Origin: a virus
Lineage: Duplodnaviria > Caudoviricetes
IMG/VR virus record: IMGVR_UViG_3300037851_000360
Location: 24,001-88,000 of that record
Length of the DNA stretch: 64,000 bases
Reading direction: 5' to 3' (one strand)
Below, piece after piece: positions 16,281 to 43,221 of this stretch (its first letter is position 1; each line of letters starts with the position of its first letter). Position numbers and translations under genes: made by a program. Below the pieces are notes generated by a model that saw only the letters and a program-made list of their open reading frames with translations, searched no databases and was not told the origin of the DNA.

Positions 16281-17294
16281 TTACTTGGTTGCGTGAAAGA
16301 TGGATTCCCATACTGGCACGGTCTTTTCCAAACCAGCCTTGTTTAGTTCTTCCCAATTTCCACATTCTGCCAGTTTGATCATGTGGTCGATTCTTCTTGC
16401 GATTGACTCACGGATTTGACCGGCGTTGATATTTCCTACCTTGGCAACTTTCACTGCCTGTTCATTTGTGAAGCCTTTTTTCATTCCCGTTGCGTTCTCA
16501 CGAACGTCAATGTTGTGATAGATTGACTCCATAAGGTTGACGAGTTCCGTCAACTTGTGCTTGTAAGGGCAGTCAGGAAGACCACAGTTTTCAAATGCTT
16601 TGCGAAGACGATCCGACTTGTCAGCGACCGAGTGAATCTCAGTCATATCAAGACGATTCTTTTCGCCAAAGTTTTCCTTGTTCTCTTCTCCACTGATGAT
16701 GGTGTGGTCATCCTTCACGGTGTGCTTCGTCGTTCCTGCAAATTCTTCTTCAAGAGGAGGAGTTTCCTTCTTGTTTTCTTTGTCGTGGGTGTAAGCGGAA
16801 ATGGTCCATCTCTTACCCTTCATATCAGAAGTTAGACCTTTTCCGAGCATTTTTGCCCCGCCTTCTTGGATTGGTGATAATGGAGCCGGGCTTGACAATC
16901 CAATTGCTGACACGCATACCACATTGGCTGTGTCTCGGTCGGCATCAGGAAATTCAGGAGTTCCACCGATTTTGCCAGAATATTGTTGGGTATCTTTGAA
17001 ATTTTCATCCGCTTCCTTCCCGTCTTTCAATTCATCTGCCAATCCAGCACGTTTCATTCCGCTGTAGTACTTTGGATTTTCCTTGAGGTGATCGAGGGCA
17101 ATCTTTGCAGCCTGACGGGGGTCGGTCGTGTGTTCCATCTCGACCTTGATTCCCATGATAAGTTCGTTCTTATCAATCTTCAATGCGGCAACTGGCGCGG
17201 CAACAACTGGTGCTGCTGGCGCTTGAACTTGTGCCAAGCCGGGCGATGACAAACCCAACGAGTGTATTTCTGTAAAGAATGATTTGAATTTCAT
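16281..17294 (-). CDS. putative internal head protein with DUF5661-like domain
   Basis: GIKVEMEHT...AKIALDHLKENPKYYS motif; CTS-like start MKFKSFFTE. Confidence 0.55.
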   Translation of the reverse strand: MKFKSFFTEIHSLGLSSPGLAQVQAPAAPVVAAPVAALKIDKNELIMGIKVEMEHTTDPRQAAKIALDHLKENPKYYSGMKRAGLADELKDGKEADENFKDTQQYSGKIGGTPEFPDADRDTANVVCVSAIGLSSPAPLSPIQEGGAKMLGKGLTSDMKGKRWTISAYTHDKENKKETPPLEEEFAGTTKHTVKDDHTIISGEENKENFGEKNRLDMTEIHSVADKSDRLRKAFENCGLPDCPYKHKLTELVNLMESIYHNIDVRENATGMKKGFTNEQAVKVAKVGNINAGQIRESIARRIDHMIKLAECGNWEELNKAGLEKTVPVWESIFHATK

Positions 17295-17296
17295 GA

Positions 17297-18409
17297 TTAC
17301 TTCTTCTTCATCTCCCTCATGATGGAACTGATTGATTCAATTGAGCGACCTTGTGTTCTTTGAGCGACACCGTTTCGCATGATTTCAGCAATGGAGTCTG
17401 GAACTACTTGTTTCTTAGGTGTCATTCCACGAATGATGGAAGCAATCTCATTGACGTTTACTTTGTCGTCTGGCAATTCTTCTGATCTGTTGATTCCGAG
17501 CATTTGTAGTCCTGAGTAATAGTTTGGGTTTTTCTTAATGTTGGCAATGGCGATCCTCTTGGATTCGTCTTTGTCTTGGTCGAATCGACGAGACATTTCG
17601 TATTTGATTCCGATGAACAATTCATCCGGATCAATACCGGGCTCTTTGAGGTCTTCTGGCTTGATCGAGTCATATGGTGCCCAACCCATCACCGTATTTC
17701 CGTTCATCGGTATTTCTCTCGATCCGAGAGTAGATGAACCAGCAAATTTGTTTGGATTCTGTCTTACACCGGGAGAAGCAAATGTTCCGAACGCACCCAA
17801 CGGAGCAACGGCACCACCGGCTGATCCATATCCACCGGAACTTCCACCATATTGACAGAACTCTTTCAAAACAGCCTTCTTCCAATCCTTGTCGCTATAG
17901 AGAATCTTGCTGAATGCAAGTTCCTTTCCTACGAATCTTTGATCCCCGACAAACTCATCTCCCTTACCTTTCTTTAGGTATGCGATGGTTACGTGAGGAT
18001 GATAGTCAGTGTATGAATTCTTCCAATTGACGTTATCCTTGATCAAGCCATTCAATTCATGAAGGTCTTCTGACTTGACTTCGATCTTGAGAACGTCGAA
18101 TTTCTCATTTCTGAATTTGGATACGACGCCGAGAGAAGCGGAGAGTGGAGTTTCAATCTGACCGATCAATTTCTTGACCTGATCCTTTCCGCCATTTTCA
18201 ACTCCATACAATACGGTGATGTGGGGATCATCTTCACGCCCCTTAATATCATCCTCTTCATCGACGTAAATGTAATCCTCGGGGATAGCCTTAATGAATT
18301 CCATCAACTCTGGAAAGTGTGGAACTCTAACCATTACAGTTTCCTCGAACCCTTCAGCACCCTCAGTCAAGAGAGCCTTCATCATTGATCTGTAGGTTAC
18401 GTCTTTCAT
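17297..18409 (-). CDS. 2H phosphoesterase (Acb1/2'-5' ligase-like) fused to a DUF5661-like domain
   Basis: Two HxT motifs, PHITVLY and PHVTIAY; C-terminal GIKYEM...IAIANIKKNPNYYS. Confidence 0.75.
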   Translation of the reverse strand: MKDVTYRSMMKALLTEGAEGFEETVMVRVPHFPELMEFIKAIPEDYIYVDEEDDIKGREDDPHITVLYGVENGGKDQVKKLIGQIETPLSASLGVVSKFRNEKFDVLKIEVKSEDLHELNGLIKDNVNWKNSYTDYHPHVTIAYLKKGKGDEFVGDQRFVGKELAFSKILYSDKDWKKAVLKEFCQYGGSSGGYGSAGGAVAPLGAFGTFASPGVRQNPNKFAGSSTLGSREIPMNGNTVMGWAPYDSIKPEDLKEPGIDPDELFIGIKYEMSRRFDQDKDESKRIAIANIKKNPNYYSGLQMLGINRSEELPDDKVNVNEIASIIRGMTPKKQVVPDSIAEIMRNGVAQRTQGRSIESISSIMREMKKK

Positions 18410-18813: not shown

Positions 18814-21027
18814 TTATGGGAGGAAGGTTGCGATTGCAACTCTCTTCCAAGTCGATCCACGCTTGAAGTAAACGTAGTCGTCTGCGATTCTGATTTCACC
18901 GGTGATACCAGCGTCAGATGCGCTGATAGGTGCGGTTGCTGTCGTTACCAACACTCCGCTTGCCGTTGCTGCCGTGATGGCATACGATGCGGTTGCGAGA
19001 GGGTTGAAGTTCTGCGCGAACGATGCTGTGACCGAGAACCATGCGTATGAGGCAGTGTCAGCGTTCAAGGCGAACGATGCAGTTCCGGCAAACTGACTTG
19101 CGGCAGTGATACCAGATACATTGGCGTAATCAACATCCAATGCAACTTCAGCGGTCAAGGCATACGATGCTGTTCCTGCGAACTGGCTTGCAGCGGTGAT
19201 ACCGGCGACGTTTGTATATGCTACATACGATGCGGTTCTTGCTGTTTCCACGTAGGAAGCGGTGTTTGCGTCGATTGCGGTGGTTGCCCACGATGCAGTT
19301 CCGACAACATTTCCGAGAAGCGATCCCGTTACGCCACCGTTTGCGGTCAACGGACCAGAGACCAAGAGCGATCCAGAAACATAATCCACAGACGAGGTAA
19401 TCGTCAAAACGTGGAGCGTGTCAACCTGAATTGCCGAAGCGGTCAAAGTCGTCAACGTTACATCCTGACCAATCAAGTTTGCTACGGTTTGAGCCGAAGA
19501 CGAAACGATACTTGAACCCTGAAGGTTTACAAGGGTCTGTGCAGAAGACGAGACAATGTTTGAACCCTGAAGGTTTACAAGGGTCTGTGCCGACGATGAC
19601 ACAATTCCAGAACCACTCAATGCGCCGCCGATATCAACGTTTGTTGCGTAGGATGCTGTTCCTGCGCGGAGTGCGTAGGATGCTGTTCCTGCGAACTGGC
19701 TCGTCGATGTGATGCCTGTTACGTTGGAGTAAGCAACGTTCGAAGCGGTCTGTGCGGTCTGAACGTAGGATGCGGTTCCTGCTACGAGAGCATAGGAAGC
19801 GGTTTCACCTACAGGAACTCCGTTGATGTAGAGAGAACCGGTGATGAGAACCGAACCGGTGAACTCGGATACGTCTGTGAGAGAATCACCAAATACGTTC
19901 GAGCCTGCGCCACCCGTTAGAGTGATGGAACCCGAAACGTTAAGAGAACCGGTGAACTCGTGAACGTTTGCGCTGGTCGAACCTGCGATAACGTTGCCAT
20001 TTACATCGGCGTTTCCTGTTACTGCGACATTTCCACCTACAGAAGCGTCACCCGATACGGCGACAGCGGATGCTGTGACCTGACCGAATGTTACGTTGCT
20101 TGTTCCGGAGAATGCTACGCCGCCGCCGTTTTCAAGTTGTGCGGAGGATGTTACGATGTTGGCAGGCTTGCTTGCTACGTTTGCCCACTGAACATACGAT
20201 GCCGTCTGTGCCGTCGTTACATAGGATGCTGTGAAAGCATTTACTACATACGAAGCGGTTGCAGCGGTGATTGCGTATGATGCGGTTGCAAGAGGATTGA
20301 AGTTTTGAGCGAACGATGCGGTCAAAGCATTCAATGCATAAGAAGCGGTTCCGGCAAACTGGCTTGTGGAAGTAATTCCAGTTACGTTGGAGTAAGCAAC
20401 GTTGGAGGCTGTCTGAGCCGTTTCAACGTATGATGCTGTCTGAGCCAACGAAGCATTTGATGCCCAAGATGCGGTTCCAACAACGTTACCGAGGAGTGAA
20501 CCGGTCACACCACCGTTTGCGGTCAATGGTCCTGTGACCAAGAGTGAACCGGAAACATAGTCAACCGATGAAGTAATGGTTAGAACGTGGAGGGTATCTA
20601 CCTGAATGGAAGATGCCGTCAACGACGTTAGTGTTACTGTCGTTCCAACGAGGTTGGCAACCGTCTGTGCCGAAGACGAAACGATGCTTGAACCTTGGAG
20701 GTTAACAAGTGTTTGCGCCGAAGACGAGACGATGCTCGAACCCTGAAGGTTTACGAGAGTTTGTGCAGAAGAAGAAACGACGCTCGTTCCTTCGAGAGCC
20801 GCACCGAGAACGGTTGGGCTGACGTAGGATGCCGATTGTGCCGTTTCAACATACGAAGCGGATTGTGCGACCTCGACATACGAAGCAGATGGTGCCGTTG
20901 CGGAAGCAACAAGACCACCTGTGCCGTCAGTTCTGACGAGGAGGTTTGAACCGCTTAGAACGGTTTCAACGAAATTGGAGTTTGCTCCATTACGTTGCGT
21001 TAGTACGATATCATAGGGATTAGACAT
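18814..21027 (-). CDS. ASY-repeat fibre protein with internal duplication (737 aa)
   Basis: Two ~150-aa duplicated blocks; C-terminal GEIRIADDYVYF...WKRVAIATF motif shared with 23928. Confidence 0.75.
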   Translation of the reverse strand: MSNPYDIVLTQRNGANSNFVETVLSGSNLLVRTDGTGGLVASATAPSASYVEVAQSASYVETAQSASYVSPTVLGAALEGTSVVSSSAQTLVNLQGSSIVSSSAQTLVNLQGSSIVSSSAQTVANLVGTTVTLTSLTASSIQVDTLHVLTITSSVDYVSGSLLVTGPLTANGGVTGSLLGNVVGTASWASNASLAQTASYVETAQTASNVAYSNVTGITSTSQFAGTASYALNALTASFAQNFNPLATASYAITAATASYVVNAFTASYVTTAQTASYVQWANVASKPANIVTSSAQLENGGGVAFSGTSNVTFGQVTASAVAVSGDASVGGNVAVTGNADVNGNVIAGSTSANVHEFTGSLNVSGSITLTGGAGSNVFGDSLTDVSEFTGSVLITGSLYINGVPVGETASYALVAGTASYVQTAQTASNVAYSNVTGITSTSQFAGTASYALRAGTASYATNVDIGGALSGSGIVSSSAQTLVNLQGSNIVSSSAQTLVNLQGSSIVSSSAQTVANLIGQDVTLTTLTASAIQVDTLHVLTITSSVDYVSGSLLVSGPLTANGGVTGSLLGNVVGTASWATTAIDANTASYVETARTASYVAYTNVAGITAASQFAGTASYALTAEVALDVDYANVSGITAASQFAGTASFALNADTASYAWFSVTASFAQNFNPLATASYAITAATASGVLVTTATAPISASDAGITGEIRIADDYVYFKRGSTWKRVAIATFLP

Positions 21028-21081: not shown

Positions 21082-21474
21082 TTACGACAAAATCAATGTA
21101 AGGTCGTAAATCTTCAAAGGGTCTTCAACCGGTCCGGCACCAGAAGCGGTAATATTGCCTACCAACTTGTCTTCTTTCCCTTGGTTGTTGATGAATGGAA
21201 CTTCAACATACCAAACTTTTGATGTGTTCACACCTTCGCCGTTGCCACGATACTCGGTCTTGATGATGTTGAACGGAAAGCCGAGTTGTGATGCGGTCTC
21301 CAAAATCTTCTTCACACCATTCCAGTATTCATCCTTGAAAAAACCGGTAGTTAGGTTGTGAAGTTTGGAGTAGGCAAATGTCTTTGCCGACTGTTTGGAA
21401 CGGCCGTCGAGTTGGTTTTTCACGGCAGGTTCTTGGTTTTCATTCAAATCTCTAAAAAAATCTCGATATTTCAT
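21082..21474 (-). CDS. putative internal head protein (130 aa)
   Basis: CTS-like start MKYRDFFRDLNE; late motif upstream. Confidence 0.55.
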   Translation of the reverse strand: MKYRDFFRDLNENQEPAVKNQLDGRSKQSAKTFAYSKLHNLTTGFFKDEYWNGVKKILETASQLGFPFNIIKTEYRGNGEGVNTSKVWYVEVPFINNQGKEDKLVGNITASGAGPVEDPLKIYDLTLILS

Positions 21475-21547: not shown

Positions 21548-23926
21548 ATGATAGCGGTAAACCTCATCCTCATAACAGGATCGTTGGCGGGCACATCCTC
21601 CCTCGGTCCGGCACATAAAGACCAATTCTACTATGCGACCGATTATCGGGGTGGAACGCTGTACTACAGCAATGGAGTCATTCCTCCTATACAAATCGGC
21701 TCGTCGCTCACAGCATCATACGCCACGTATTCGATTCAGTCGAGCCAATCACTTTCCTCCGTCAGTGCGGTCAGTTCAAGTTATGCAGTTACCGCTGTCA
21801 CCTCAAACTACGCACTGACGGCAGGAACCTCTTTATCCGCATCTTTTGCTGCACAAGCAAGGTCTGCGTCATATGCTCTCACGGCAAGTTACCTAACCGG
21901 AGTCACATCCGGTACAGCAAGTTTTGCCGTGACCGCATCATACGCACTTACGGCAAGTTACCTAAATGGATTCAATGGGGGAACGGCATCTTGGGCGATT
22001 TCGGCATCAAGAGCAATTTCTTCAGAAACGGCAGACTCGACGCCATTTGCATTGACAGCATCGTATGCCCTGAATGCGGGAACTGTTCCAACCGCTTCAT
22101 TCGTTGTGACCGCCTCGGGCGCTCTATCCAATCTCACAGCATCTTACGCACTAACCGCCAGTTACATTTCCGGATTCAGTGTTACTGCATCTTGGGCGGT
22201 TTCGGCATCGCGAGCCGTTTCGGCAGAAACCTCCGTTTCTTCAAGCACATCAATCAGTTCAAGTTATGCTTTAACCGCATCGTTTGCTCTTAATGCCGCT
22301 TCTGTTCCAACGGGGTCATTCGTCGTCACTGCATCTGGTGCACTATCAAATTCAACGGCATCATATGCTCTCACAGCAAGTTATATGAAGAACCAAGGAA
22401 CTTCCAGTGGATACATCATTGGAAATGCCATGGATGGTTTTTATGGTCCGGGATCAACGGGTTCAGTTGCCAACATCCAAGAAGGAGACCGTGTGGAAGA
22501 CGCATTAAACAAAATCGATGACATTCTGTTCAAGTTGGCACCAGCGCGACCACCAAATCTGAGTACAAAGTCTCTCACGTTGGGCGGAATTTACACTGCA
22601 AATCTCGCAGGTACCAATACAGCAATTACGACAGTAACTACCGATACAACTCCTCTATTCACTCTATCCGGAGGAATGACTTCTTCCAATGCGTTTGGAG
22701 ACGGCGATGCAGGAGAACTTTCAGCATCACTCAATGGAACGACAATCGGTTCCCGTCTGCTATCGGCAGCAGATGATTCGGGATCATACGGAGATTTGGG
22801 AATCACACTCGACATTGACTATTACCTTGGTCAAGCCGGTAAAGCCGGATTCTGGAAGGCACTGCTTGCACAGGTCAATGTTTCTTCCCCGATTGCCACG
22901 GTTGGTCCTCACAGCGCATCTCTAAAGCACACGACGACGGGTCAAACTCCGGATTACATCTTCTACATCGACACTCCGGTTACACCAACAGCCGTCACGG
23001 GAAGTGTTGTTGCGTCTGGTGTGACCTATATCTCGGGCGTTCCGGCTTTGGTTGGTGGAGTAAGTGCCTCGGCAATTTTACTATCAGCAACCGCATCCAA
23101 TACGGTTGGTCGTTTCTACAACACCACGAGAATATTTCAAGGTTCTGGAACGGGTGTCACCGCTGCAAACTTTACCCTGCCATCCTCACCGGCATCAGGT
23201 TCGATTCAATCGGGTTCAAGATCATACACCGTCAACGCTTCCAGCACTACGGAAAATGCATCTTACACGGTGACGGCTTACAACTCGTTTGGAACGACCG
23301 CCACGAACACAATCACCAACACACGAATCCGTATGGATTCCACAGTCGATCCTTCGACTCGTGTAAGGTCTGGTCAAGGTCATTACCCAACATCCGGTTC
23401 ACTCGCTTCCCAATACGCTGGAGCATTTGATTCTACAACATCCCTCTCGGGTTCCGGAAGCGAAGAACTTCAAATGCTGAATGGTCAGTTCCAATACCCA
23501 ACCGGAAACTACACAGGTTCCGTTCCGGTGGCAGGACCGAACTATTCATCGGTTCCAACGGGATCGTTCAATAACTTCCGCTGGGTGACATTCAACATGG
23601 GTTCGATTGTCAACAAGGCAAACATTCAAGTCAATTTCTCCAATACTACAGGATTCACAACTGTCGTTCTAACCAACTTCCAACTCGGAGTTCGTGTAGA
23701 AGGATCAACCCCGACCGCTGGTTGGGTTGATGGCAACGTGGCATTTCCGGGTGTTGGCGATCCTACAAACAACGGTGATGCCGCACTTGTTATTGCAAGT
23801 TCGACGGCAACATCAAAATTGGTTACGTTTGGAACGGCTGTAAAAACTGGAACGGTATTTGTTCGTGTTGGAATACCTCTCGGTGACACTAAGAAGTTCG
23901 GCGGAATCACGATAACAGCGACCTAA
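21548..23926 (+). CDS. large ASY-repeat virion structural protein (792 aa)
   Basis: ASY repeats followed by a Thr/Ser/Gly-rich beta region. Confidence 0.65.
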   Translation: MIAVNLILITGSLAGTSSLGPAHKDQFYYATDYRGGTLYYSNGVIPPIQIGSSLTASYATYSIQSSQSLSSVSAVSSSYAVTAVTSNYALTAGTSLSASFAAQARSASYALTASYLTGVTSGTASFAVTASYALTASYLNGFNGGTASWAISASRAISSETADSTPFALTASYALNAGTVPTASFVVTASGALSNLTASYALTASYISGFSVTASWAVSASRAVSAETSVSSSTSISSSYALTASFALNAASVPTGSFVVTASGALSNSTASYALTASYMKNQGTSSGYIIGNAMDGFYGPGSTGSVANIQEGDRVEDALNKIDDILFKLAPARPPNLSTKSLTLGGIYTANLAGTNTAITTVTTDTTPLFTLSGGMTSSNAFGDGDAGELSASLNGTTIGSRLLSAADDSGSYGDLGITLDIDYYLGQAGKAGFWKALLAQVNVSSPIATVGPHSASLKHTTTGQTPDYIFYIDTPVTPTAVTGSVVASGVTYISGVPALVGGVSASAILLSATASNTVGRFYNTTRIFQGSGTGVTAANFTLPSSPASGSIQSGSRSYTVNASSTTENASYTVTAYNSFGTTATNTITNTRIRMDSTVDPSTRVRSGQGHYPTSGSLASQYAGAFDSTTSLSGSGSEELQMLNGQFQYPTGNYTGSVPVAGPNYSSVPTGSFNNFRWVTFNMGSIVNKANIQVNFSNTTGFTTVVLTNFQLGVRVEGSTPTAGWVDGNVAFPGVGDPTNNGDAALVIASSTATSKLVTFGTAVKTGTVFVRVGIPLGDTKKFGGITITAT

Positions 23927-23927
23927 G

Positions 23928-24935
23928 ATGCCTAATACCAACCAACAAGCCGACCTACTCTTCAAGAAGTCCCTCGGAAAAGGTTCTTCGGGAACATCAT
24001 CGTTTTATTTCAACGAACCAATCAACGGAAGAATTGCAGTTTTCCCCACGCAGATTTGGCAAGACCAAGGGCTCATTCCAGTCACAGCATCGTATTTGAA
24101 TGGAATCGTTGAGCAAGTATTGACTCAATCTCTGATTCAAGTTCCCGGTCAACCCGCCGCCTATTACCACCCCAATCTAAGAGATGCCATCCCGTTCAAC
24201 TACGACCCTTCCGGATCGTATGTTCCACAGGTGATGAAGAATGACCTGACACCAATTGCATTCGGTGAAAATGATTGGGTTATCGACATTGATACGGGAA
24301 TGCTCACTTTCTATAGTGGCGTTCCAACCGGTGTGACCGATCTTCTTCCTCCAAAGGTAACCTTCTGGAAGTACATTGGTTCAAAAGGAATCCCAACAGG
24401 ATCGGTTACGGCATCATACGCATTGACTGCCAGTTATGTTGAAGGAGTCAACGCAGCAACCGCAAGTTGGGCGATCACCGCATCGTATGCACTTTATGCA
24501 GAAACGGCGTCGGTTGCAACTTCGGCTTCTTATTCCGTCTCGGCATCCTACGCAACTTTTGCAAGAACTTCGGTTTCCTCAAGTTACTCCGAAACCGCCT
24601 CGTATGCGTTTACGGCGTCTTATGTTCAACAGGCTCAATCGGCACTGTCGGCAACATCGGCTTCATATGCAGCCAGCGCGAGTTATGCCCAATCGTCACT
24701 TTCTTCAAGTTATGCGGTAAGCGCATCCTACGCAGTAAGCGCATCGTATTCGGTCTCGGCATCATACGCCGCCACATCATCCGTTGCTCTTTTTGCATTG
24801 AGCATTGAAGTTGCCACACCTCCTACATCACCATCAGACCCCGGAATTCAGGGTCAATTTTCGATAGACGATGACTATTTCTATATCTTCTGGAATGGGG
24901 TTTGGAGTCGCCAAACAAGAAACACGGTATGGTAA
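23928..24935 (+). CDS. ASY-repeat virion structural protein
   Basis: Globular N-domain, ASY repeats, C-terminal GQFSIDDDYFYIFWNGVWSR motif. Confidence 0.65.
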   Translation: MPNTNQQADLLFKKSLGKGSSGTSSFYFNEPINGRIAVFPTQIWQDQGLIPVTASYLNGIVEQVLTQSLIQVPGQPAAYYHPNLRDAIPFNYDPSGSYVPQVMKNDLTPIAFGENDWVIDIDTGMLTFYSGVPTGVTDLLPPKVTFWKYIGSKGIPTGSVTASYALTASYVEGVNAATASWAITASYALYAETASVATSASYSVSASYATFARTSVSSSYSETASYAFTASYVQQAQSALSATSASYAASASYAQSSLSSSYAVSASYAVSASYSVSASYAATSSVALFALSIEVATPPTSPSDPGIQGQFSIDDDYFYIFWNGVWSRQTRNTVW

Positions 24936-24954: not shown

Positions 24955-24963
24955 ATATTTATA
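24955..24963 (+). promoter_or_regulatory. putative late promoter motif ATATTTATA
   Basis: 4 nt upstream of the ATG at 24968. Confidence 0.6.
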
Positions 24964-24967
24964 GAAG

Positions 24968-27900
24968 ATGAACGAGTTGACGAAACATTTGGTTGAGGGA
25001 GTGATTAACGAAATCGCAATGGCACCTATCCCGGTGTTCATATATTCCGGTCATTTTCAACCACCGCATTTGGGAAACAAGTGGGTCTGGGACTGGCTCG
25101 CAAAGACAAGAGGAGCGGACAAATGCTTCATTGCGACTCCAAGTGATGCTTCACCACTGACCTTTGCCGAAAAGAAATCGGTATTCGCAGCGATGGGAAT
25201 GGATTCATCAAAGGTCAACCAATCCATCGGTTTGTTTAGAGCGCCATCCATCACTGAAAAGTTCGACGTGAACAAGTATGCATTCGTTTATGTTGTGAAT
25301 GAAGTTGATGCCGGAAACGTTCCCCCTCGCTTCAAGCCATACAAAGATAAGATGGTGATCACACCACACATCCTTGGCGAATCATACTACATGGTCGTTC
25401 CGAAGGAAGCATTCACCGTTGGAGGAATCACAATTGACGACGAAAAGGTTATCAAGTTCCTCGGCTCACCAAAGATGGATTACAAAACCTCAATGGAGGC
25501 ATTCCACAAGTTCTTCGGATTCTTCGATGAGCACATGTTCAATGTTCTCGTGAAGAAGTTTGAGAAAACCGTTAAGGAAGACATTACCCCAATAGTTCAG
25601 ACAACGGAGCAATCGTCAAGCCTTTCACCTCAATTCAAGGCACCGACACTAAGCGTTTCTGAGAGAGCCTCTCTTGCTGAAAGAATGGGAGTCGAACAAT
25701 CGTGGGTAGATGAACTTTTGACAGAAGACCCCGATGGCGTTGATGATGGAGATGAGGTGCATCCTTGGGATAGCCGTCAGGCATACCCATTCTTTTTGAT
25801 TGACGACTTTTTGTTGGTCGGAAGACCAGCATCCACACACAGAAGTTTGATCAAGGCTCTGAACTTCACTCCAGACGACCTCCACCGATTCACTCGACCG
25901 AATAATACCGACTCAGCGTTTTACGTTGAAAAGTTGAAAAGCATTCTTCAAAACAATTTGGATTATCTTGAGATGGATGATCCCGACGATGAGTTTAACG
26001 GGGCGTATGAACGAGACGAAGCATCAATGAAATTCGTTGCCGGAAGATTGTGGAAAAACGAACAGATAATATCGTTTTGGTCTCCAAAATCCCTCGTGGT
26101 GAAAAATTGGGAAACTCTGAAAAAAGCAGTGTCAAAATTTCATTCGTTTGGCAACCTCGACGACTATAGAATTGACTGGATTGAAAGAGATTCAAGCGAG
26201 CCTATGACCGATGGTTCGTCAATATCATCAACTTCATCCAATACGAAAGACGACTTGTCTCCAGAAGAATACAAGAAGTTGCTATCAAAGCAGCATCTTG
26301 ACCCAAACGCCAAGAAAGTATTGGCAAAGATGGCAGAACATCCAAACAAAGCCGCTGAAATCGCCGATAAACTTGGTATGTCTGTGGCAGAACTCAATCA
26401 CTTGATTGGTGTTGTGGCAGAAGGAGCGACGGCACAAATCTTGAAAGAAGACCCGGATGAAGTTGTCGATGAAGATGGAACGGCAATCGCATATTTGGAG
26501 GAGAATGACACAAGAGCATTCTTCTTCTTTGACGACGTTGCCATTTTCTCCATTCCCGGTGGTCGCCACGAGGAACTATTCAACACCATCAAAAGAGTTG
26601 CCGAAGTCGGGCGGTTCGACCGTGTTGACCTTGAAAGAATGGTCATTGCTGATGGAAAGCCAAACAAAGCAGACTTGGTTCGAGTAGTTCGTGCATTCAC
26701 AAAATACAAGAGTCAGATTTTCAGTGGTTCTGGAAGAAACATTGCCGGTGTTCTGGTTGGTAGAGTGTGGACAGAAAAGAAACTCATGTCGTTCTGGACA
26801 CTGAAGAGGGTTGCCATCAAGAGTTGGGATAACGTCGAGAAGATTTTCCAACAGTTTCCAAACCTTCTAGGAAACCGTCATGAATACAGAATCGACTGGC
26901 TCGAACGTGCATACAAGAAGCCGATTCCTCCATTGACAAGATTTGACAATGCACGTGATGGAGCACCAGAGGAGAAGATCACCCCCGAGAAGTTGAAAGA
27001 CCTTCTATCCAAGCAACACCTTGACCCAAAGGCAAAGGAAATCTTAAAGAAGGTTCAGGGTCTTCCTCCCAACAAGGCAGCACACCTCGCCACATTGCTT
27101 GGATTCAACAGCCCGGCAGAAATGTTCTATCACCACGGGCACGACGGAAGCGGTGGAACTCAAAAGATAAATGAAGACCCCGGAGAGGTTTACGAGAAGA
27201 ACAAAGAGATTCTCAACTACACCGCCGAGGATGCAGTTATTTTCATCACACTTGAAGACGGAACGATCTTTGGCGGAAACGGAATGCTTCACGAAGAACT
27301 TTATCACAGCATTCTCAGTTACATTTTCAAGCGAGAATGGAAGTATGTGGAAAATGATGGATATTTCTCCGATCAAAAGAAAGTGGAACGTTATCTAATC
27401 ATCAAAGGAAAATACCTCGCAGATCATGACAAGATTCAAGATGATGGTCGATCACCATATAAGGGTTTGGCGGGAAGAATTTGGACAGACAAGAGAGTAA
27501 TTTCATTCTGGCAAACTCCGGAAGAAACTCGTCCACACTGGAAGAAGATTGAAGAAGCGTTTGCTCGCGATCCTCAACCCTGCCGCCAAAAGGATGGTTC
27601 GACAAAGAACAGCCAACCACTTCACCTAGGAAAACTTGAAGAATACCGTCTCGACTTCGTTGATAGTGGCGGAAATGCTGACGGATTGATTCCAGTTCAA
27701 AGTTTCCTATCAGGTGAGATGAAAAAGAGCCGCCTATCCCCCGAGGAATACAAAGAACTTCTCGCAAAACAGCACCTTGATCCAGAGGCAAAGAAAAAAC
27801 TTGCCGCCGATCTTGAAGGTGGTCCTTATAACAAGGCTGCTGAATTGGCAAAGAAACTTGGCTACGACTCTGTTGCTCAGATGAACGCTGACATTCACAC

Positions 27901-30900
27901 AAATCTCGACGAGAAGAAACTCACGGAGAGCCCCGATGTTGTACGCGACGTTGCACGTGAAGATGATGCTGAGATGCCAAGAGATTTGGCTACATACGGA
28001 GATGCTGACGCCACCACGTTTGTTGCATTTGAAAACTTCGACATCACCACGGGAATGTATCACTATCACATTTTCAAGGCACTCCAAGAATTTGACAGAA
28101 TGGGAAATTGGAAATACGCCGATGGAAACTACATGGATTTTGATAAAGAGGCTGCTGCGGAATACATTCGCAGCGATCTTCCAGAAGAATTTGACGGGTC
28201 TGATGTGAATGAGGGTCGAGAATTCCCACACGCTCTTGCGGGGCGTCTCTGGACCAATAAGAAAATCATATCATTCTGGCATCATCAATCCGAAGTTCAA
28301 CACTACTGGAATAATGTGGTGGAAATGTTCCAGAGACACACCGAGTTTGGTTCGTTGGATGATTACCAGATCGATTGGTTGGAACGGTCGGAGGATTTGA
28401 CTCTTCCGCTAACCAAGGCAAGTACGTCAGCCAAGCCGAACATAGAAAAGAAAACTAACTCTTCTGTGGATAAATTGGATGCCGTCAAGAAGGCTATGCA
28501 CGTTATGGACCCGGGTGCGAAGGGTCAACTCATGAAAATGCTCCAAGGTGCAAGCCCAAACAAAAAGCAAGAGATTGCCGACAAACTTGGAATTTCCGTG
28601 GCACAACTCAATGCTATGGATCGCATGGATGAAGCAGTCAATTCTCCAGACAAGCCGGTAATCGCAATTTACTCGGGAAGATTCCAACCATTCCACATCA
28701 ACCACTACAAGGCATATCAGGAAATGGTCAAGGAGTTCGGTAAGGATAACGTATTCATCGTCACCAGCGATAAGACGGAACCCGGCACCAGCCCATTCGA
28801 TTTCAAGCAGAAGTCGCAAATCATGACTCGTGTGTTCGGTATTCCACAGAGACAAATTGTGGAAGCACTTCACATGAATGGCGACAAGCCAAACCGTGGT
28901 CCATACTTCACCATCGACAAGACGGCAGGAAAGTTGAGCGATTGGATGAAGGAAATCGCGAAGCGTATGGGAATGAACCCCGACAATCCACCCCCATTCG
29001 GTCTCGTCATCGGATTTGGTGGCAAGGATGAAGCCAGAAGCAGAATCGCCAAATCTGAATACTCTCCCGGAAAGCCCGTTCCAAATTTCATGCCCGAAGG
29101 AAACGTCATGTCGTTTACCATTCCAATGCAGGATGTGAATTTCAAGGGACACGTCATCAATGGAACCATGGTTCGAGAAATCATCACGAAGCATCCCGAG
29201 ATGGCTGATATGCTATTCAAGATTCTCTATCCACAGGGAATCGATCCACAGACAAAGGCTATGATCGTTTCCACGATCCAGTCGTCAATTGCACCAGAGC
29301 CAAAGGTAAAGAAGAAAAAACTTGAAGAAGGAGTTCAGTTCGGATTCATTAAGCACATCGAAGACATGTCTCCAGAAGAACTCTTGAATTTTTTCAAGTT
29401 GTGGAATGCGGATCAAACGAAATTTGAGACGTTCGAGAAGGTAGACGGAAACTTCTATCGATTTGGATTGAGCGTTGGAAAGTTCTACGTCAAAGATTCC
29501 AAGCAGGCTTATAACAAACCCGAAGAATATCCAGAGCCATACTTCTACGATGACTTCCGTCGATTCCATGCGGAATTGCAAAAGATCGATTGGTCTCTCA
29601 TCTTGAAAGAAGTTGGAGCATACGACAATCTGAACTTCGAAGCCGACAGTGAAGCCGTTCCACACGCTCACCACAATCAGGTTGAGTACAATGGAAAGAT
29701 CATCGGTGAAGGAATCGTTGTCATCTTTGGATTGACAATGGATGGATCGAAGACCGACTACAACACTATTGTCAAGTTCTGCAAGAAGGCAAACGAGCAC
29801 AGCCCAAAGATCAAATTCCACGCTGTTCCAAAGGTTGACCTTTCCAAGATCAAGTTCGACACATCCACGGTCGAGACTCTGGAATCTCTCATCACCAAGC
29901 ACGGAAACTTCCTCAAGAAGCCTGCTAGAAAGCCAGAAGACAAAGCCCTCAAGCAAAAGATTCTCGGTTTGATCCATGACATTGCTGTTAAGGCAAAGAA
30001 TCGCGTGTTTTCCACAAACATCAAGTCGGCATTCGGTCAAGACTATGAAGGAATGGTCGTTCACCTTCCCGGTGGAGGTATGGTCAAGTTCGTTGACAAA
30101 GACAAGTTCACAAAGTCGAAGGATGAAAGTTGGAAGGTCATCTCCGACATGGATTCCGTTCTCAAGCCAATTCGCGACGATATGAAGAAAGGTGTCGCTG
30201 ACGGGATGATGCAGAGATTGCAATCCGCCAAGACACAAATCACCACAATCTACAACGCCTTCAAGAAGAATCCCGAATCGGTAAAGAGCGAAAAGAAGCG
30301 TGAGGATACTCACAAGCACTATGACCTTCTCATGAAACAGATTGACAAGGCATTGGCTTCTCTTCAGCAGGGTCAACCTGTAACCCAACTGCGCGAAAGC
30401 GGAAAGGCAGTCGGTGAGGTCAACCCAATCCCAAGAAGTTACCTTGAAAAAACCGTTGAGCACGCTCTCAACATTTGGGGATTCAAGGGAACCCCATACG
30501 AACTTCTTGGAAACATCAACAAGGATATCCTCGGAGATATTGACGTTGGAATCGATTACCCACATGTAGAAAAAGTCGTAGGTGCTGCGCCCGACTCTCC
30601 CGATTTCTGGCAGAAGGTTGAAGAATACTTCAGCAAGCAGTCGAGTAAGGTTCAAGGTCGCGAACCGAAATACAAGATCATGAAGGGTCTCGAAATCGTT
30701 TCCGTTCTTTCCTTTGCCGTTGATGAAACTGGCAAGGTTCATCCCGAACTACCAGTTCAGGTTGACATTGCATTCGGCGACATGAAATTCATGAAAGCCG
30801 GTCGCAGCGGAGCACCAAAGGATAGCAAATACAAGGCTCTCCACAGAAACATTCTCCTTGCTGATATCCTCTCGACTATCTACCACGAGCAGGTAGACGA

Positions 30901-31204
30901 CAAGACCCGTCGCCGTTATCAAATCAATATTTCCAAAGGCGTGCAGACTGCGGATTTGATTAAAGGACCAAGAGGCGGCGAAAAGAAAGCCAATGTCAAG
31001 ACCATCATCAACGACCCCGACAAGATGGCAGAACTTCTTTTCGGCCCGGGAATGAAGTGGGAAGACATGAACAGTTTCGAGAAGTTATACAAACTCCTCG
31101 TCGGTCCAAAATTCCGCTACAAAGACAAAGTTAAAGAAATCGTCGATAAGTTCAAAGACTCCATGAAACGTATGGAGCGTGATGTTCCTTCGGAACTTGC
31201 GTAA
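24968..31204 (+). CDS. 2078-aa multidomain protein: 2 HxGH-like nucleotidyltransferases, 4 tandem unknown+HTH modules, KxDG ligase-like domain, Pol-beta-like NTase
   Basis: YSGHFQPPHLGN (25043), YSGRFQPFHINH (28670), EKVDG (29438) with EGMVV and VKFVDK, GDIDVGID (30533) with VQVDI. Confidence 0.75.
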   Translation: MNELTKHLVEGVINEIAMAPIPVFIYSGHFQPPHLGNKWVWDWLAKTRGADKCFIATPSDASPLTFAEKKSVFAAMGMDSSKVNQSIGLFRAPSITEKFDVNKYAFVYVVNEVDAGNVPPRFKPYKDKMVITPHILGESYYMVVPKEAFTVGGITIDDEKVIKFLGSPKMDYKTSMEAFHKFFGFFDEHMFNVLVKKFEKTVKEDITPIVQTTEQSSSLSPQFKAPTLSVSERASLAERMGVEQSWVDELLTEDPDGVDDGDEVHPWDSRQAYPFFLIDDFLLVGRPASTHRSLIKALNFTPDDLHRFTRPNNTDSAFYVEKLKSILQNNLDYLEMDDPDDEFNGAYERDEASMKFVAGRLWKNEQIISFWSPKSLVVKNWETLKKAVSKFHSFGNLDDYRIDWIERDSSEPMTDGSSISSTSSNTKDDLSPEEYKKLLSKQHLDPNAKKVLAKMAEHPNKAAEIADKLGMSVAELNHLIGVVAEGATAQILKEDPDEVVDEDGTAIAYLEENDTRAFFFFDDVAIFSIPGGRHEELFNTIKRVAEVGRFDRVDLERMVIADGKPNKADLVRVVRAFTKYKSQIFSGSGRNIAGVLVGRVWTEKKLMSFWTLKRVAIKSWDNVEKIFQQFPNLLGNRHEYRIDWLERAYKKPIPPLTRFDNARDGAPEEKITPEKLKDLLSKQHLDPKAKEILKKVQGLPPNKAAHLATLLGFNSPAEMFYHHGHDGSGGTQKINEDPGEVYEKNKEILNYTAEDAVIFITLEDGTIFGGNGMLHEELYHSILSYIFKREWKYVENDGYFSDQKKVERYLIIKGKYLADHDKIQDDGRSPYKGLAGRIWTDKRVISFWQTPEETRPHWKKIEEAFARDPQPCRQKDGSTKNSQPLHLGKLEEYRLDFVDSGGNADGLIPVQSFLSGEMKKSRLSPEEYKELLAKQHLDPEAKKKLAADLEGGPYNKAAELAKKLGYDSVAQMNADIHTNLDEKKLTESPDVVRDVAREDDAEMPRDLATYGDADATTFVAFENFDITTGMYHYHIFKALQEFDRMGNWKYADGNYMDFDKEAAAEYIRSDLPEEFDGSDVNEGREFPHALAGRLWTNKKIISFWHHQSEVQHYWNNVVEMFQRHTEFGSLDDYQIDWLERSEDLTLPLTKASTSAKPNIEKKTNSSVDKLDAVKKAMHVMDPGAKGQLMKMLQGASPNKKQEIADKLGISVAQLNAMDRMDEAVNSPDKPVIAIYSGRFQPFHINHYKAYQEMVKEFGKDNVFIVTSDKTEPGTSPFDFKQKSQIMTRVFGIPQRQIVEALHMNGDKPNRGPYFTIDKTAGKLSDWMKEIAKRMGMNPDNPPPFGLVIGFGGKDEARSRIAKSEYSPGKPVPNFMPEGNVMSFTIPMQDVNFKGHVINGTMVREIITKHPEMADMLFKILYPQGIDPQTKAMIVSTIQSSIAPEPKVKKKKLEEGVQFGFIKHIEDMSPEELLNFFKLWNADQTKFETFEKVDGNFYRFGLSVGKFYVKDSKQAYNKPEEYPEPYFYDDFRRFHAELQKIDWSLILKEVGAYDNLNFEADSEAVPHAHHNQVEYNGKIIGEGIVVIFGLTMDGSKTDYNTIVKFCKKANEHSPKIKFHAVPKVDLSKIKFDTSTVETLESLITKHGNFLKKPARKPEDKALKQKILGLIHDIAVKAKNRVFSTNIKSAFGQDYEGMVVHLPGGGMVKFVDKDKFTKSKDESWKVISDMDSVLKPIRDDMKKGVADGMMQRLQSAKTQITTIYNAFKKNPESVKSEKKREDTHKHYDLLMKQIDKALASLQQGQPVTQLRESGKAVGEVNPIPRSYLEKTVEHALNIWGFKGTPYELLGNINKDILGDIDVGIDYPHVEKVVGAAPDSPDFWQKVEEYFSKQSSKVQGREPKYKIMKGLEIVSVLSFAVDETGKVHPELPVQVDIAFGDMKFMKAGRSGAPKDSKYKALHRNILLADILSTIYHEQVDDKTRRRYQINISKGVQTADLIKGPRGGEKKANVKTIINDPDKMAELLFGPGMKWEDMNSFEKLYKLLVGPKFRYKDKVKEIVDKFKDSMKRMERDVPSELA
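25727..28633 (+). repeat. four tandem ~235-251-aa protein repeats
   Basis: Units start at 25727, 26450, 27176 and 27929; conserved GRxW...SFW, YxIDW, KQHLDPxAK, NKAAExAxxLG. Confidence 0.85.
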
Positions 31205-33576: not shown

Positions 33577-35427
33577 ATGGAAGAAATCAACAACCAATCG
33601 CTGTTCAACAGGCTGAAGAGACTCTTTAGCACGAACGTAATTGTGCGCAATGTGGGAGGAAAGAAACTCAAGGTTGTTGACACCGACGAGGTTCAATTTG
33701 CAACCGATAGACACTCACTCCGTGACAGGTTCAACCGCCTTCGTTCCAGTACATACAACTTGCACAACCGAGACATGGCTATGTCATATCAAGCCGCCCG
33801 TCTCGAATTGTTCCGCGACTATGATGTTATGGATATGGACCCAATCATCTCGGCGGCACTTGACATTTATGCCGATGAGTGCGTCACCGAGTCTGAAATG
33901 GGTGATATTCTCACCATCACATCGGAAGATGAGAACATCAAAGAAATCCTTGAGAACCTCTTCAAAGACATTCTCAATGTAGAATTCAACTTGTGGTCAT
34001 GGGTTCGTAACATGGTCAAGTACGGAGACTTCTTCCTGAAACTCGACATTTCTCCTGAATACGGAATCTATACCGTGGTTCCTCTTTCAGCATACGAAGT
34101 CACCCGTGTTGAAGGATCGAATCCTGACAACATGAATTATGTCAAGTTCCAACACGACGGTCCCATGGGCGGTCAGGAATACGAAAACTTCGAGGTTGCA
34201 CACTTCCGTCTATTGGGCGACTCCAACTTCCTTCCTTATGGAAAGTCGATGTTGGAAGGTGCTCGTCGCGTTTGGAAGCAGTTGAGCCTCATGGAAGACG
34301 CTATGTTGATCCACCGCATCATGCGAGCGCCCGAAAAGCGTATCTTTAAGATCGACATTGGTAATATCGCTCCGTCCGACGTTGATCCATACATGGAAAA
34401 GATCATCTCCAAGATGAAGAAGGTTCCATACATTGACGAGAGAACCGGCGACTACAACCTTCGCTTTAACCTCATGAACATGGTCGAAGACTTCTTCCTA
34501 CCTGTTCGTGGTGGTGACTCCGGAACATCCATTGATTCCTTGCCGGGTATGGAGTTTACTGGAACGGATGATATCGAATATCTCCGCAACAAGATGATGG
34601 CAGCACTCAAGATTCCAAAGGCATTCTTGGGTTATGACGAGTCGATTGGTGGTAAGGCAACATTGGCACAGGAAGATATCCGCTTCGCCAAGACCATCGC
34701 TCGCATTCAGAGAATTCTCGTCAGCGAACTTACCAAGATCGCCATCGTTCACTTATATGTACAGGGTCACCAAGACGCATCTCTTGTCAATTTCAAACTT
34801 TCTCTAACCAATCCGTCGAGTATCTTCGAACAGGAGAAAATCTCCCTTTGGAATGACAAGACCGACCTTGCAAAGAACATGCAGGAAGCCAACCTCTTCA
34901 GCGCCGAGTGGATATACAAGAAAATCTTCGGCCTCAGTGAAGGGGATATTGAAGAAATTCAAGAGCAGATGGTGGAAGACAAGAAGATGATTTGGAGATT
35001 TGCACAAATCGAAGAACAGGGTAATGATCCAGCCACAAGCGGTCAGAATGTAAACGCTGATGGAGATTTGGAAAACGCTGGTGGTGAACCAGCAGCAGAA
35101 CCAGCAGCCGGTGGGGAAGCCCCACTAAAGGAAGAGGAAGAAAAGCCCGAGCGTGATCAATCTGGAAGAAAAGATGCTCGTGAATATCCCTTCGGTGAAG
35201 ACCCAATTGGAAAACTAGGTCGTAAAGAAAAGACCCGCTCCGACCCCATCCGTCACAGTTTCCGTGGTGGATTGTTCAAGATCAATGAACTTGAAAGAAT
35301 CAAAGAAGCCGTTAAACAAAAGGCATCAAAGACGACAGTCGCTAAGGAAATCTTGACCGAAAAAAAGTCATTGCTAGATGAAAGCAACATCTTGGATGAC
35401 GTAAGTGAAAAAGGTACATCTGGTTAA
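33577..35427 (+). CDS. gp20: portal protein (T4 gp20-like)
   Basis: MEDAMLIHRIMRAPEKRIFKIDIGN, MVEDFFLPVRGG, DIEYLRNKMMAALKIP. Confidence 0.97.
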   Translation: MEEINNQSLFNRLKRLFSTNVIVRNVGGKKLKVVDTDEVQFATDRHSLRDRFNRLRSSTYNLHNRDMAMSYQAARLELFRDYDVMDMDPIISAALDIYADECVTESEMGDILTITSEDENIKEILENLFKDILNVEFNLWSWVRNMVKYGDFFLKLDISPEYGIYTVVPLSAYEVTRVEGSNPDNMNYVKFQHDGPMGGQEYENFEVAHFRLLGDSNFLPYGKSMLEGARRVWKQLSLMEDAMLIHRIMRAPEKRIFKIDIGNIAPSDVDPYMEKIISKMKKVPYIDERTGDYNLRFNLMNMVEDFFLPVRGGDSGTSIDSLPGMEFTGTDDIEYLRNKMMAALKIPKAFLGYDESIGGKATLAQEDIRFAKTIARIQRILVSELTKIAIVHLYVQGHQDASLVNFKLSLTNPSSIFEQEKISLWNDKTDLAKNMQEANLFSAEWIYKKIFGLSEGDIEEIQEQMVEDKKMIWRFAQIEEQGNDPATSGQNVNADGDLENAGGEPAAEPAAGGEAPLKEEEEKPERDQSGRKDAREYPFGEDPIGKLGRKEKTRSDPIRHSFRGGLFKINELERIKEAVKQKASKTTVAKEILTEKKSLLDESNILDDVSEKGTSG

Positions 35428-37279: not shown

Positions 37280-37888
37280 ATGAAGATACCTCTAAACAAT
37301 GTTATTCCATTCGAAATCTCGCCTCGCGTTCTTCAAGAAGTTCGCGAGAACGTATCTGGCCCAGTAACCGTCGAAGGTATCCTACAGAAAGCAAACGAAC
37401 AGAATCAAAATGGTCGTCGCTATCCAAAGCCAATTCTCGAAAGAGAAATCATGAACTACCAAAAGAACTTCGTCAATGAACGTCGTGCTCTTGGAGAACT
37501 CGACCACCCAAATTCGGGTGTAATCAACCTCAAGAACGTATCCCACAACATCGTGGAATGCCATTGGGAAGGCGACAACGTAGTTGGAACCATCGAAATT
37601 TTGACCACGCCCGCTGGAAACATTCTTCGCGAACTCATCAAGAACAACATTCGTCTTGGTATCAGTTCTCGTGGTATGGGTTCCGTTAAGGAACTTCGCG
37701 AAGGTGGTGTTGAGGTACAGGACGACTTCGAACTTCTTTGCTTTGACTTCGTATCCAACCCATCCACCCGTGGCGCATTCATGCAGCCACAATCGCTCAA
37801 TGAAGGTCTTGAAAAGACACTTGAAGCAGTTTCCAAGTACGGAAAAGTCGAAGGATTGATCTACGACCTTCTCTCGGAGATGAAATAA
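37280..37888 (+). CDS. gp21: prohead core protease (T4 gp21-like)
   Basis: ALGELDHP, GISSRGMGSV, FDFVSNPST catalytic motifs. Confidence 0.95.
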   Translation: MKIPLNNVIPFEISPRVLQEVRENVSGPVTVEGILQKANEQNQNGRRYPKPILEREIMNYQKNFVNERRALGELDHPNSGVINLKNVSHNIVECHWEGDNVVGTIEILTTPAGNILRELIKNNIRLGISSRGMGSVKELREGGVEVQDDFELLCFDFVSNPSTRGAFMQPQSLNEGLEKTLEAVSKYGKVEGLIYDLLSEMK

Positions 37889-41604: not shown

Positions 41605-43221
41605 ATGGAAAACGTAAAGTCACTACTCACAGACACGTTCAACCCACAGGCAAAGTTGATGGCTGAAACCCGCAACCTCGTCAACAAGTGGTCAAAGACG
41701 GGTCTCCTCGAAGGTATCGATGCTGATGTTGAGAAATCACACATGGCGATCCTTCTCGAAAACCAAGCAAAGCAGTTGATCGAAGAAGCTACCCGCACCG
41801 GTACCTCCGCTAACTCCGAACAGTGGGCAGGCGTTGCTCTCCCACTCGTCCGTCGTGTGTTCGCAGAAATCGCTGCTAAGGAGTTCGTCTCCGTTCAGCC
41901 AATGAACCTCCCATCCGGTCTCGTATTCTATCTTGACTTCAAGTATGGTACGGATCAGGCAGGTAAGCCAGCATTCAACGGTGCCTCGCTCTTCGGTGGT
42001 AACTCCATCAAGCTCGGCTCGACGGATGCTCCAGTAAACGGTATGTATGGTCAGGGTCGCTTCGGCTACACCATCAATGACCAGACAACCATGAGCGCAA
42101 TCGTATCGCAAGTTTCTTCGTCATTCCGTGACATTAACTTCGTAGACGAACTCTCCGCTTCGATGGCTGCTGGTACCATCCACACCGTCGCTGTCAACAT
42201 GGCAGGCACAAGCTTCGACACACTCGGAGCCCGCGCCTTCACCATCTCCGGTTCCGGAATCACCGACTTCTACCCAGCCTTCACAAAGGTATCGGGTTCA
42301 GCAGTTGTGTTCGTCGTTGAGGCAGCAACCGGCCCTGTGGCATCTCCTGTTCGCGTTGACTTCCACGTTCAGCCAACCCCTGAATCCCGTGGCGACTTCG
42401 AAGACAAGGGACCTCTCGCAGGACCAGCAGGTAACGACAGCGGTCTTAACAAAGACGTTGGAATTCCTGAAGTCAACCTTGAATTGAAGTCTGAAGCAAT
42501 CGTTGCCAAGACCCGCAAGCTCAAGGCAGTCTGGACTCCAGAACTCGCTCAGGACTTGAACGCTTACCACTCGATTGACGCAGAAGCAGAGCTAACCGCT
42601 CTCCTCTCTGAGTACGTATCGATGGAAATCGACCTCGAAATCCTCGACATGTTGATCACTTCTGCTCCTGCAATCACGACCGAATTCTGGTCGGCTCGCA
42701 TCGGTGCCGAATACGACCGTAACCTCTCGCAGTTCGTTGATACGGCTACAAACCGTACGGCTTACGTCAAGAGCACATGGTTCCAGACTCTTGGTAACAA
42801 GATTCAGAAGGTATCGAACAAGATTCACCAGTTGACACTCCGTGGAGGTGCAAACTTCCTCGTCTGCTCACCTGACGTTGCCACAATCATCGAATCCATC
42901 CCCGGTTTCACGACCAACACGGACGGTGATCAGGCTAAGTTCGCAATGGGTGTAGCCAAGGTCGGCGCTCTCGCCAACCGTTGGACCGTCTATAAGAACC
43001 CATACATGACCGACAACGTAATGCTCGTTGGTTTCCGTGGAAACAACTTCCTCGAAACCGGCGCAGTCTACGCTCCGTACATCCCACTCATCCAGACCCC
43101 ATTGGTCTACGATCCAGTTAACTTCACACCACGTCGCGGAGTAATGACCCGTTACGCCAAGAAGTTGGTTCGCCCTGAGTTCTACGGTAAGATCATCATC
43201 GGAAATCTCGATCAGGTTTAA
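41605..43221 (+). CDS. gp23: major capsid protein (T4 gp23-like)
   Basis: VSVQPMNLPSGLVFYLDFKY, KTRKLKAVWTPELAQDLNAYHSIDAEAELT, YAPYIPL, RGVMTRYA. Confidence 0.98.
   Translation: MENVKSLLTDTFNPQAKLMAETRNLVNKWSKTGLLEGIDADVEKSHMAILLENQAKQLIEEATRTGTSANSEQWAGVALPLVRRVFAEIAAKEFVSVQPMNLPSGLVFYLDFKYGTDQAGKPAFNGASLFGGNSIKLGSTDAPVNGMYGQGRFGYTINDQTTMSAIVSQVSSSFRDINFVDELSASMAAGTIHTVAVNMAGTSFDTLGARAFTISGSGITDFYPAFTKVSGSAVVFVVEAATGPVASPVRVDFHVQPTPESRGDFEDKGPLAGPAGNDSGLNKDVGIPEVNLELKSEAIVAKTRKLKAVWTPELAQDLNAYHSIDAEAELTALLSEYVSMEIDLEILDMLITSAPAITTEFWSARIGAEYDRNLSQFVDTATNRTAYVKSTWFQTLGNKIQKVSNKIHQLTLRGGANFLVCSPDVATIIESIPGFTTNTDGDQAKFAMGVAKVGALANRWTVYKNPYMTDNVMLVGFRGNNFLETGAVYAPYIPLIQTPLVYDPVNFTPRRGVMTRYAKKLVRPEFYGKIIIGNLDQV

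Follow-up and report, generated by a model that had tools for sequence, protein, structure and literature searches.

The 64,000-nt stretch of DNA analysed here (the window; positions 24,001 to 88,000 of the IMG/VR record IMGVR_UViG_3300037851_000360, an uncultured Caudoviricetes virus; all coordinates are those of the window) encodes, at 24968..31204 on the plus strand, a protein of 2078 amino acids (aa), P0001, which we regard as a putative capsid-targeted polyprotein with four repeats of an undescribed domain. All features of this gene, and the head-module genes described below, lie on the plus strand. P0001 begins with a short N-terminal leader (24968..25012), MNELTKHLVE/GVINE/, where slashes stand for the points at which the protein would be cut; with its two L/I-x-E sites this is a candidate capsid-targeting sequence (CTS), and it is found as MNGLTKHLVE/GVLNE/ in the orthologue P0002 (1818 aa, 43-54% identical). 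The leader is followed by a first HxGH-type nucleotidyltransferase-like segment (aa 16-253; 25013..25726; C-terminal end DELLTE/, E253), which matches a cytidylyltransferase-like protein of Microcystis phage Mel-JY01 (29% identity, E 3e-18) and, weakly, the Pfam family CTP_transf_like. Beyond the repeats lies a second, NMNAT-like nucleotidyltransferase segment (aa 1223-1454; 28634..29329; C-terminal end KKKLEE/, E1454), with matches to CTP_transf_like (E 3.6e-6, aa 1234-1270), the cytidyltransferase family phrog_395 (E 4.8e-10), NMNAT models in NCBIfam (weak) and the Mel-JY01 protein (E 1e-15). The C-terminal 620 aa (29330-31204, aa 1455-2078) gave no Pfam match; they hold a KVDG string and a GDIDVG string, which may point to ligase-like and Pol-beta-like nucleotidyltransferase modules.

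The initial annotation of this DNA, made from its letters, had described four tandem diverged units of about 240 aa at 25727-28633. Full-length alignment confirms them, this interval being exactly residues 254-1222, and every motif listed at that time is present in the repeats. Repeat 1 (aa 254-494; 25727..26449) runs from DPDG to AQILKE/, repeat 2 (aa 495-736; 26450..27175) from DPDE to TQKINE/, repeat 3 (aa 737-987; 27176..27928) from DPGE to EKKLTE/ and repeat 4 (aa 988-1222; 27929..28633) from SPDV to DRMDE/. The pairwise identities of 28-42% (BLASTP E 4.5e-21 to 4.5e-31) are far beyond chance, and all four copies keep the invariants of the family described below (F, H, GRxW, SFW, W and, in the tail, H..P..K). 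No repeat of the ~240-aa unit was seen at the DNA level by Tandem Repeats Finder, so the duplication must be old. In a FastTree phylogeny of 61 strong instances, read for topology only, repeats 1, 3 and 4 pair with repeats 1, 2 and 3 of P0002, respectively, as orthologues; the repeat-1 pair has repeat 2 as its sister, and repeats 3 and 4 fall among copies of other proteins, apart from repeats 1 and 2. This repeat-by-repeat pairing indicates that the four copies are long-separated paralogues, each of which has been maintained separately.

A profile built from the four P0001 copies was searched against 1.84 billion cluster representatives and retrieved 310 of them at E<=1e-3, 112 at E<=1e-10 and 47 at E<=1e-30. 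Of the 310, the 150 best are most often proteins with one well-matched copy (76), followed by those with two (49), three (16), four (4) and five (2), and HMMER found up to eight matched stretches in some family proteins. Enzyme domains are absent from most members. In 98 near-full instances the core is marked by F (96%), H (91%), G-R-x-W (100/100/99%) and S-F-W (94/88/100%) and the tail by H (99%), P (91%) and K (93%), while the stretch inserted between the His helix and the GRxW hairpin is hypervariable in both length (40-100 aa) and sequence. The core domain had not been recognised in the initial annotation, and the wider searches agree: neither the whole of P0001, nor any single repeat, nor 36 homologues gave a match to the core in Pfam, PHROGs or NCBIfam. 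A profile search of PDB sequences with the repeats returned a single row (E 0.26), which was dismissed as it aligned to a low-complexity tag sequence. Among 50,697 GenBank phage records no match was obtained by blastn of the P0001 gene or by tblastn of repeat 2, P0132 and P0090, and a pattern scan of GTDB species genomes revealed no relative. Searches of T4, RM378, the 484-kb uncultured phage LR756508, Mel-JY01 and Flavobacterium phage immuto with the family profile gave no match; as a positive control, the profile matched the window and two IMG/VR contigs. A word-indexed protein search added only two new proteins, P0152 and P0153. On these sequence comparisons the domain is a real, large and undescribed family of uncultured T4-like phages. 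One member, P0076 (389 aa), has after its single copy a C-terminal extension with an AYHGT...NGF string; this extension has no Pfam match, and the string recalls ADP-ribosyltransferase-type motifs.

An AlphaFold2 model of repeat 2 (m3544dc9658f4), based on an alignment of 40 sequences, reached a predicted local distance difference test (pLDDT) score of 81.6 and a predicted template modelling (pTM) score of 0.70, with the conserved core blocks above 90. In sequence order, the model shows four short strands, then a helix that begins at the conserved His, followed by the helical insertion that varies between copies, the GRxW/SFW hairpin, further helices, the YxD strand and four tail helices of lower confidence. 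The clusters obtained from the ESM Atlas, at 0.89, were all unnamed, and no named cluster was matched. A relationship to gelsolin/ADF-like alpha/beta sandwiches was considered and set aside, its score lying far short of what counts as meaningful for the tool (under 8), at 11% sequence identity. An R-S-E reading of GRxW/SFW/YxD as an ADP-ribosyltransferase site was dropped because no more than 9 residues separate the R from the S, both in one hairpin, and because none of the searches matched an ADP-ribosyltransferase family or fold. Likewise, the idea of an N-terminal nucleophile at the new N-terminus was abandoned because the P1' residue is mostly D, S, T or N, with no fixed S/T/C. The invariant R, W, W, H and S of the core might form a shared pocket together with the H..P..K of the tail, although we propose this weakly.

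The evidence that bears most directly on the fate of P0001 is the motif at which each domain begins. In 304 domain starts from 153 proteins, the conserved start reads E/xPD, and the P3 residue before it is L (180) or I (59), that is, 79%, against the 14.6% that L and I together make up in the background. P0001 has L/I-x-E sites at residues 10 and 15 in the leader, at all four repeat starts (LLTE253/DPD, ILKE494/DPD, KINE736/DPG, KLTE987/SPD), and also at 1454 and 1810, in the C-terminal part past the match of the second nucleotidyltransferase segment; the leader and boundary sites are kept in P0002. Where the domain lies within 45 residues of the N-terminus (112 domain starts in 111 proteins), what precedes it is mostly a leader of 10 aa (MKTFKEFLAE, MKTFKQYIKE, MKTFIEILKE, MIKLKNILKE) or of 19-20 aa (MNKPRLPFDIEFLMESILSE). 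The 10-aa leaders have hydrophobic or aromatic residues at positions 4, 7 and 8 and Glu at position 10, and leaders of about 10-20 aa that are hydrophobic at positions 4 and 7 and end in L/I-x-E are found in the family. The T4 capsid-targeting sequence is MKTYQEFIAE (PMC8442874), and the T4 protease gp21 cuts after L/I-x-E, with leader residues 4 and 7 serving in targeting and residues 8 and 10 in processing (PMC9026906). The family leader MKTFKEFLAE is identical to the T4 sequence at 7 of 10 positions.

The expected cutter at these sites is encoded in the same phage. A T4 gp21-type prohead core serine protease (37280..37888; Pfam Peptidase_S77, PF03420, E 3.5e-29) belongs to a T4-type head module that also includes a gp20-type portal protein (33577..35427; PF07230, E 8.4e-74) and a gp23-type major capsid protein (41605..43221; PF07068, E 1.2e-77), as expected for T4-type CTS cargo. 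Downstream of P0001 come a 212-aa ORF and the genes for the large terminase and the portal and, further on, those for the protease and the major capsid protein. A promoter-like motif, ATATTTATAG, at 24955..24964 (+) ends 3 nt before the P0001 start codon; similar motifs stand upstream of the gene starts at 2209, 3461, 14273, 21548, 33577, 35475, 44361 and 21474 (minus strand), many of them structural or late genes, and TATTTATA occurs 10 times on the plus strand and once on the minus strand. That P0001 has this upstream motif in common with the portal and tail-fibre-like genes fits its co-expression with the structural genes. Before the ORF at 2209 the motif ends 4 nt from the ATG; given these spacings of 3-4 nt, the transcripts of P0001 and of this ORF might be leaderless.

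We favour, with moderate confidence, the interpretation that the repeats belong to a new family of internal head proteins which, in uncultured T4-like phages, are targeted to the capsid and released by the protease. Late expression alongside the structural genes would yield the 2078-aa precursor, and its short leader would carry it into the prohead core in the manner of the T4 capsid-targeting sequence. The gp21-type protease would then cut P0001 after L/I-x-E, at sites that fall exactly at each repeat start, and so free four proteins of ~27 kDa together with the NMNAT-like and other nucleotidyltransferase-like pieces; the released pieces would be kept in the head until they pass into the host along with the DNA. 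After entry, each copy may perhaps bind a common ligand or partner via one shared pocket, and the hypervariable insertion of 40-100 aa may, again tentatively, give each paralogue its own specificity.

Several points weigh against this interpretation. Whereas the repeats, the family, the cleavage-type motif, the T4-like leaders, the protease gene and the late-gene context are shown here, cleavage, packaging and ejection are inferred, and the biochemical role that we give to the domain is conjecture. The boundary after repeat 4, RMDE1222/A, has M rather than L or I at P3, although P0002 has TIDE/A at the same place. L/I-x-E is a short motif, with 21 sites in P0001, several of them inside folded domains, and the conserved L-x-E-x-P-D could be a structural element of the domain. 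Three of the four copies, which would be ~240 aa each when mature, are predicted to be acidic (isoelectric points (pI) of 4.8, 5.6 and 4.9 for copies 1, 3 and 4, against 8.6 for copy 2), unlike the basic internal proteins of T4. Finally, the searches of GenBank phages and of individual genomes found the family in no cultured phage, and thus no published virion proteome covers it.

Some of these points can be assembled into a different explanation, in which P0001 is a single uncleaved giant multidomain enzyme. The repeats would then be internal non-catalytic modules, for example for substrate binding or spacing, between the nucleotidyltransferase domains; L-x-E-x-P-D would be part of the fold and the 'leaders' of the homologues would be its first helix. 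Besides the shortness of L/I-x-E and its presence inside domains, this explanation draws on the P1'-P3' residues xPD, which are nearly invariant, lie in a predicted strand and are not required by T4 cleavage sites, and on the fusion of the repeats to enzymes in both P0001 and P0002. We nevertheless consider it unlikely: the leaders vary in length (5-45 aa) and sequence and yet nearly always end in [LI]xE, the 10-aa leaders match the T4 targeting sequence position by position, the majority of family members lack enzyme domains altogether, and the phage has the matching protease.

The copies could also be packaged and have no role in the host, as bulk inner-core or 'inner body' material that helps to organise or eject the DNA, a role put forward for the paralogous processed head proteins of phiKZ-like and SPN3US-like giant phages. 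Tandem paralogue arrays with protease-type sites are what such material might look like, and paralogous processed head proteins are known in giant phages (PMC5694885). The 88-kb IMG/VR record is estimated by CheckV to be 43% complete, which suggests that the phage behind it has a large genome, again in line with this possibility. It appears improbable to us, since the invariant polar R, H, S, H and K and the hypervariable insertion look more like a binding site with a specificity element, and since each paralogue is kept separately in P0002. Moreover, the closest cultured relatives by capsid protein, Mel-JY01 (56% identity) and the Flavobacterium immuto phages (55%), lack the family, which is therefore not a core assembly component.

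The initial annotation had offered another route into the host, by which each unit ends in a helix-turn-helix (HTH)-like module whose DNA binding would tether it to the packaged genome for co-ejection. The last ~65 residues of each unit indeed form a tail of four predicted helices: in repeat 1 (LSPEEYKKLLSKQHLDPNAKK...NKAAEIADKLGMSVAELN...LKE) it lies at 26252..26449, as placed by alignment and modelled alone, and in repeats 2, 3 and 4 the tail alignment and profile place it at 26975..27175, 27731..27928 and 28457..28633. The first two helices carry the invariant H..P..K, whose conservation equals that of the core motifs, and the last two contain NKAAEIADKLGMSVAELN, a segment that weakly resembles consensus HTH sequences. 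The tail also gives repeated weak matches to models of natural families (DprA_WH, HTH_5, HTH_24, ArsR, MarR, Sigma70_r3/r4), but all of those in Pfam are below the cut-offs (DprA_WH 17.7 bits vs 22.9; Sigma70_r3 23.2 vs 25.3), and no HTH family of Pfam or NCBIfam was matched above its curated threshold. The best natural PDB row for the tail is a sigma factor at E 0.17, and the strong rows among PDB sequences come from designed repeat proteins, composed of HTH-like consensus units, rather than from natural relatives. In 10 of 12 tails the HTH-like half carries a net charge of -1 to -4; its second helix, the supposed recognition helix, is acidic, with no more than one K or R in the majority of tails. 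Modelled alone, the tail is again four helices at low confidence (pLDDT 69.9; 56-77 for the tail in the whole-repeat model) and matched neither an HTH nor any other fold. Only 121 of 248 core matches extend through the HTH-like element, while 70 end just after the H..P..K helices. The string SLAERMGVEQSWV that closes the first nucleotidyltransferase segment, which had been likened to these modules, does exist but goes undetected by the tail profile, so that its relationship to the tails is not borne out. A DNA-binding tail as genome tether is accordingly unsupported, and we hold this model to be very unlikely. Throughout the family the HTH-like element varies very little, which may point to a common protein partner, a better fit than varied DNA sites, or else to a role beside the cleavage site. 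Taken as a whole, the earlier interpretation finds partial support, which does not extend to the DNA-binding tail.

The T4 internal proteins are the textbook example of phage proteins that are injected with the DNA to disarm host defences, and only a few small examples have been studied. Like the present family, T4 IPI, IPII, IPIII and Alt have a short leader with hydrophobic residues at positions 4 and 7 and a terminal L/I-x-E, the gp21-type protease is encoded in the same phage, and the mature parts are diverse and phage-specific. The mature parts themselves have no similarity in sequence or fold to the repeats, as the empty profile search of the T4 genome illustrates, and the repeats are larger and mostly acidic, whereas the T4 proteins are basic. 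By size and pI the copies are outside the narrow group of IPI, IPII and IPIII, with their small, highly basic mature proteins, which does not bar them from being CTS cargo in general. P0001 further differs from T4 in that four paralogues share a 2078-aa precursor with enzymes, an arrangement in which one leader would serve many cargoes; such a multi-cargo polyprotein was not found in the T4 literature searched. The T4 internal proteins are a diverse anti-restriction set whose only common feature is the targeting sequence (PMC3012670), and by analogy an anti-defence role for the repeats is a reasonable guess. In the giant phages phiKZ, 201phi2-1 and SPN3US, a gp21-related protease processes paralogous head proteins by cleaving behind a Glu within short motifs, and some of these proteins are cut at several sites (PMC5694885, PMC9026906). 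Unlike in the present family, these motifs are S/A-x-E or A-x-E and the propeptides are often long; no homology between the processed head proteins of giant phages and the family was found, the family profile not having been run on the genomes of the phiKZ, 201phi2-1 and SPN3US groups. The gp23/gp20/gp21 head module of the present phage is of T4 type, again unlike that of the giant phages.

The enzymatic parts of P0001 have counterparts in the cultured relatives. Mel-JY01 and Flavobacterium phage immuto encode cytidylyltransferase-like or NMNAT-like proteins (L007:6248-8167 in Mel-JY01; L008:206-2929 in Flavobacterium phage immuto_3-5A) that lie upstream of the terminase, in the genomic position of P0001, and contain the HxGH nucleotidyltransferase module found in both P0001 segments flanking the repeats. 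Neither genome yielded the four-repeat domain in the profile search, and the immuto protein matches P0001 only marginally (E 0.009). The N-terminus of the Mel-JY01 protein reads MGKLINILLSE, with a final L-x-E motif. NAD-related enzymes may thus be packaged more widely in this group of phages.

Similar leaders are also found on unrelated neighbours of P0001 in the window, namely on a 2H phosphoesterase (MKDVTYRSMMKALLTE), a DUF5661 protein (MKFKSFFTE) and the product of the ORF at 21082-21474 (MKYRDFFRDLNE). The first of these is a 370-aa protein (17297-18409, minus strand) with a 2H phosphoesterase domain (PF13563, E 2.1e-7) and a match to Acb1 (PF23474, E 8.8e-5) that is below the cut-off; with its leader ending in L-x-E, it may be another packaged enzyme. 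The DUF5661 protein is encoded at 16281-17294 (minus strand; E 1.9e-10), and another DUF5661 gene is present on an unrelated 57-kb phage contig, directly upstream of the gene for the single-copy family member P0152. A literature search on DUF5661 and capsid-targeted polyproteins found nothing relevant. Elsewhere in the window, the large ORFs at 2209-3405, 3461-5407, 5461-7422, 7424-8848, 18814-21027 (minus strand), 21548-23926 and 23928-24935 have repeated (T/S)ASY(A/V) motifs near the N-termini of their products and are probably tail-fibre-like.

Should the packaging interpretation be wrong, the repeat would still be a well-defined and widespread domain with a confident model and no known fold, and a reasonable target for structure determination. 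If it is right, the targeting and processing code of T4 is shared by a family that numbers hundreds of members among environmental T4-like phages, and a domain absent from all databases is carried by these phages, often as arrays of paralogues and sometimes fused to enzymes. One may go further, tentatively and with some doubt on our part, and suppose that few families of injected phage proteins are larger than the one defined by this unseen fold, whose members would be pre-made effectors. A protease-cut 'cargo train' would deliver them, with a single leader loading four paralogues and NAD-related enzymes; such effectors may, for example, bind nucleotide immune signals or inhibit host defence proteins. 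Given packaging, even without this further step, the family would provide a ready list of candidate effectors of the first minutes of infection. Natural loading of several cargoes from one leader would be relevant to T4-based protein delivery, and the leader together with L/I-x-E/xPD would give a sequence rule for finding packaged proteins in metagenomes.

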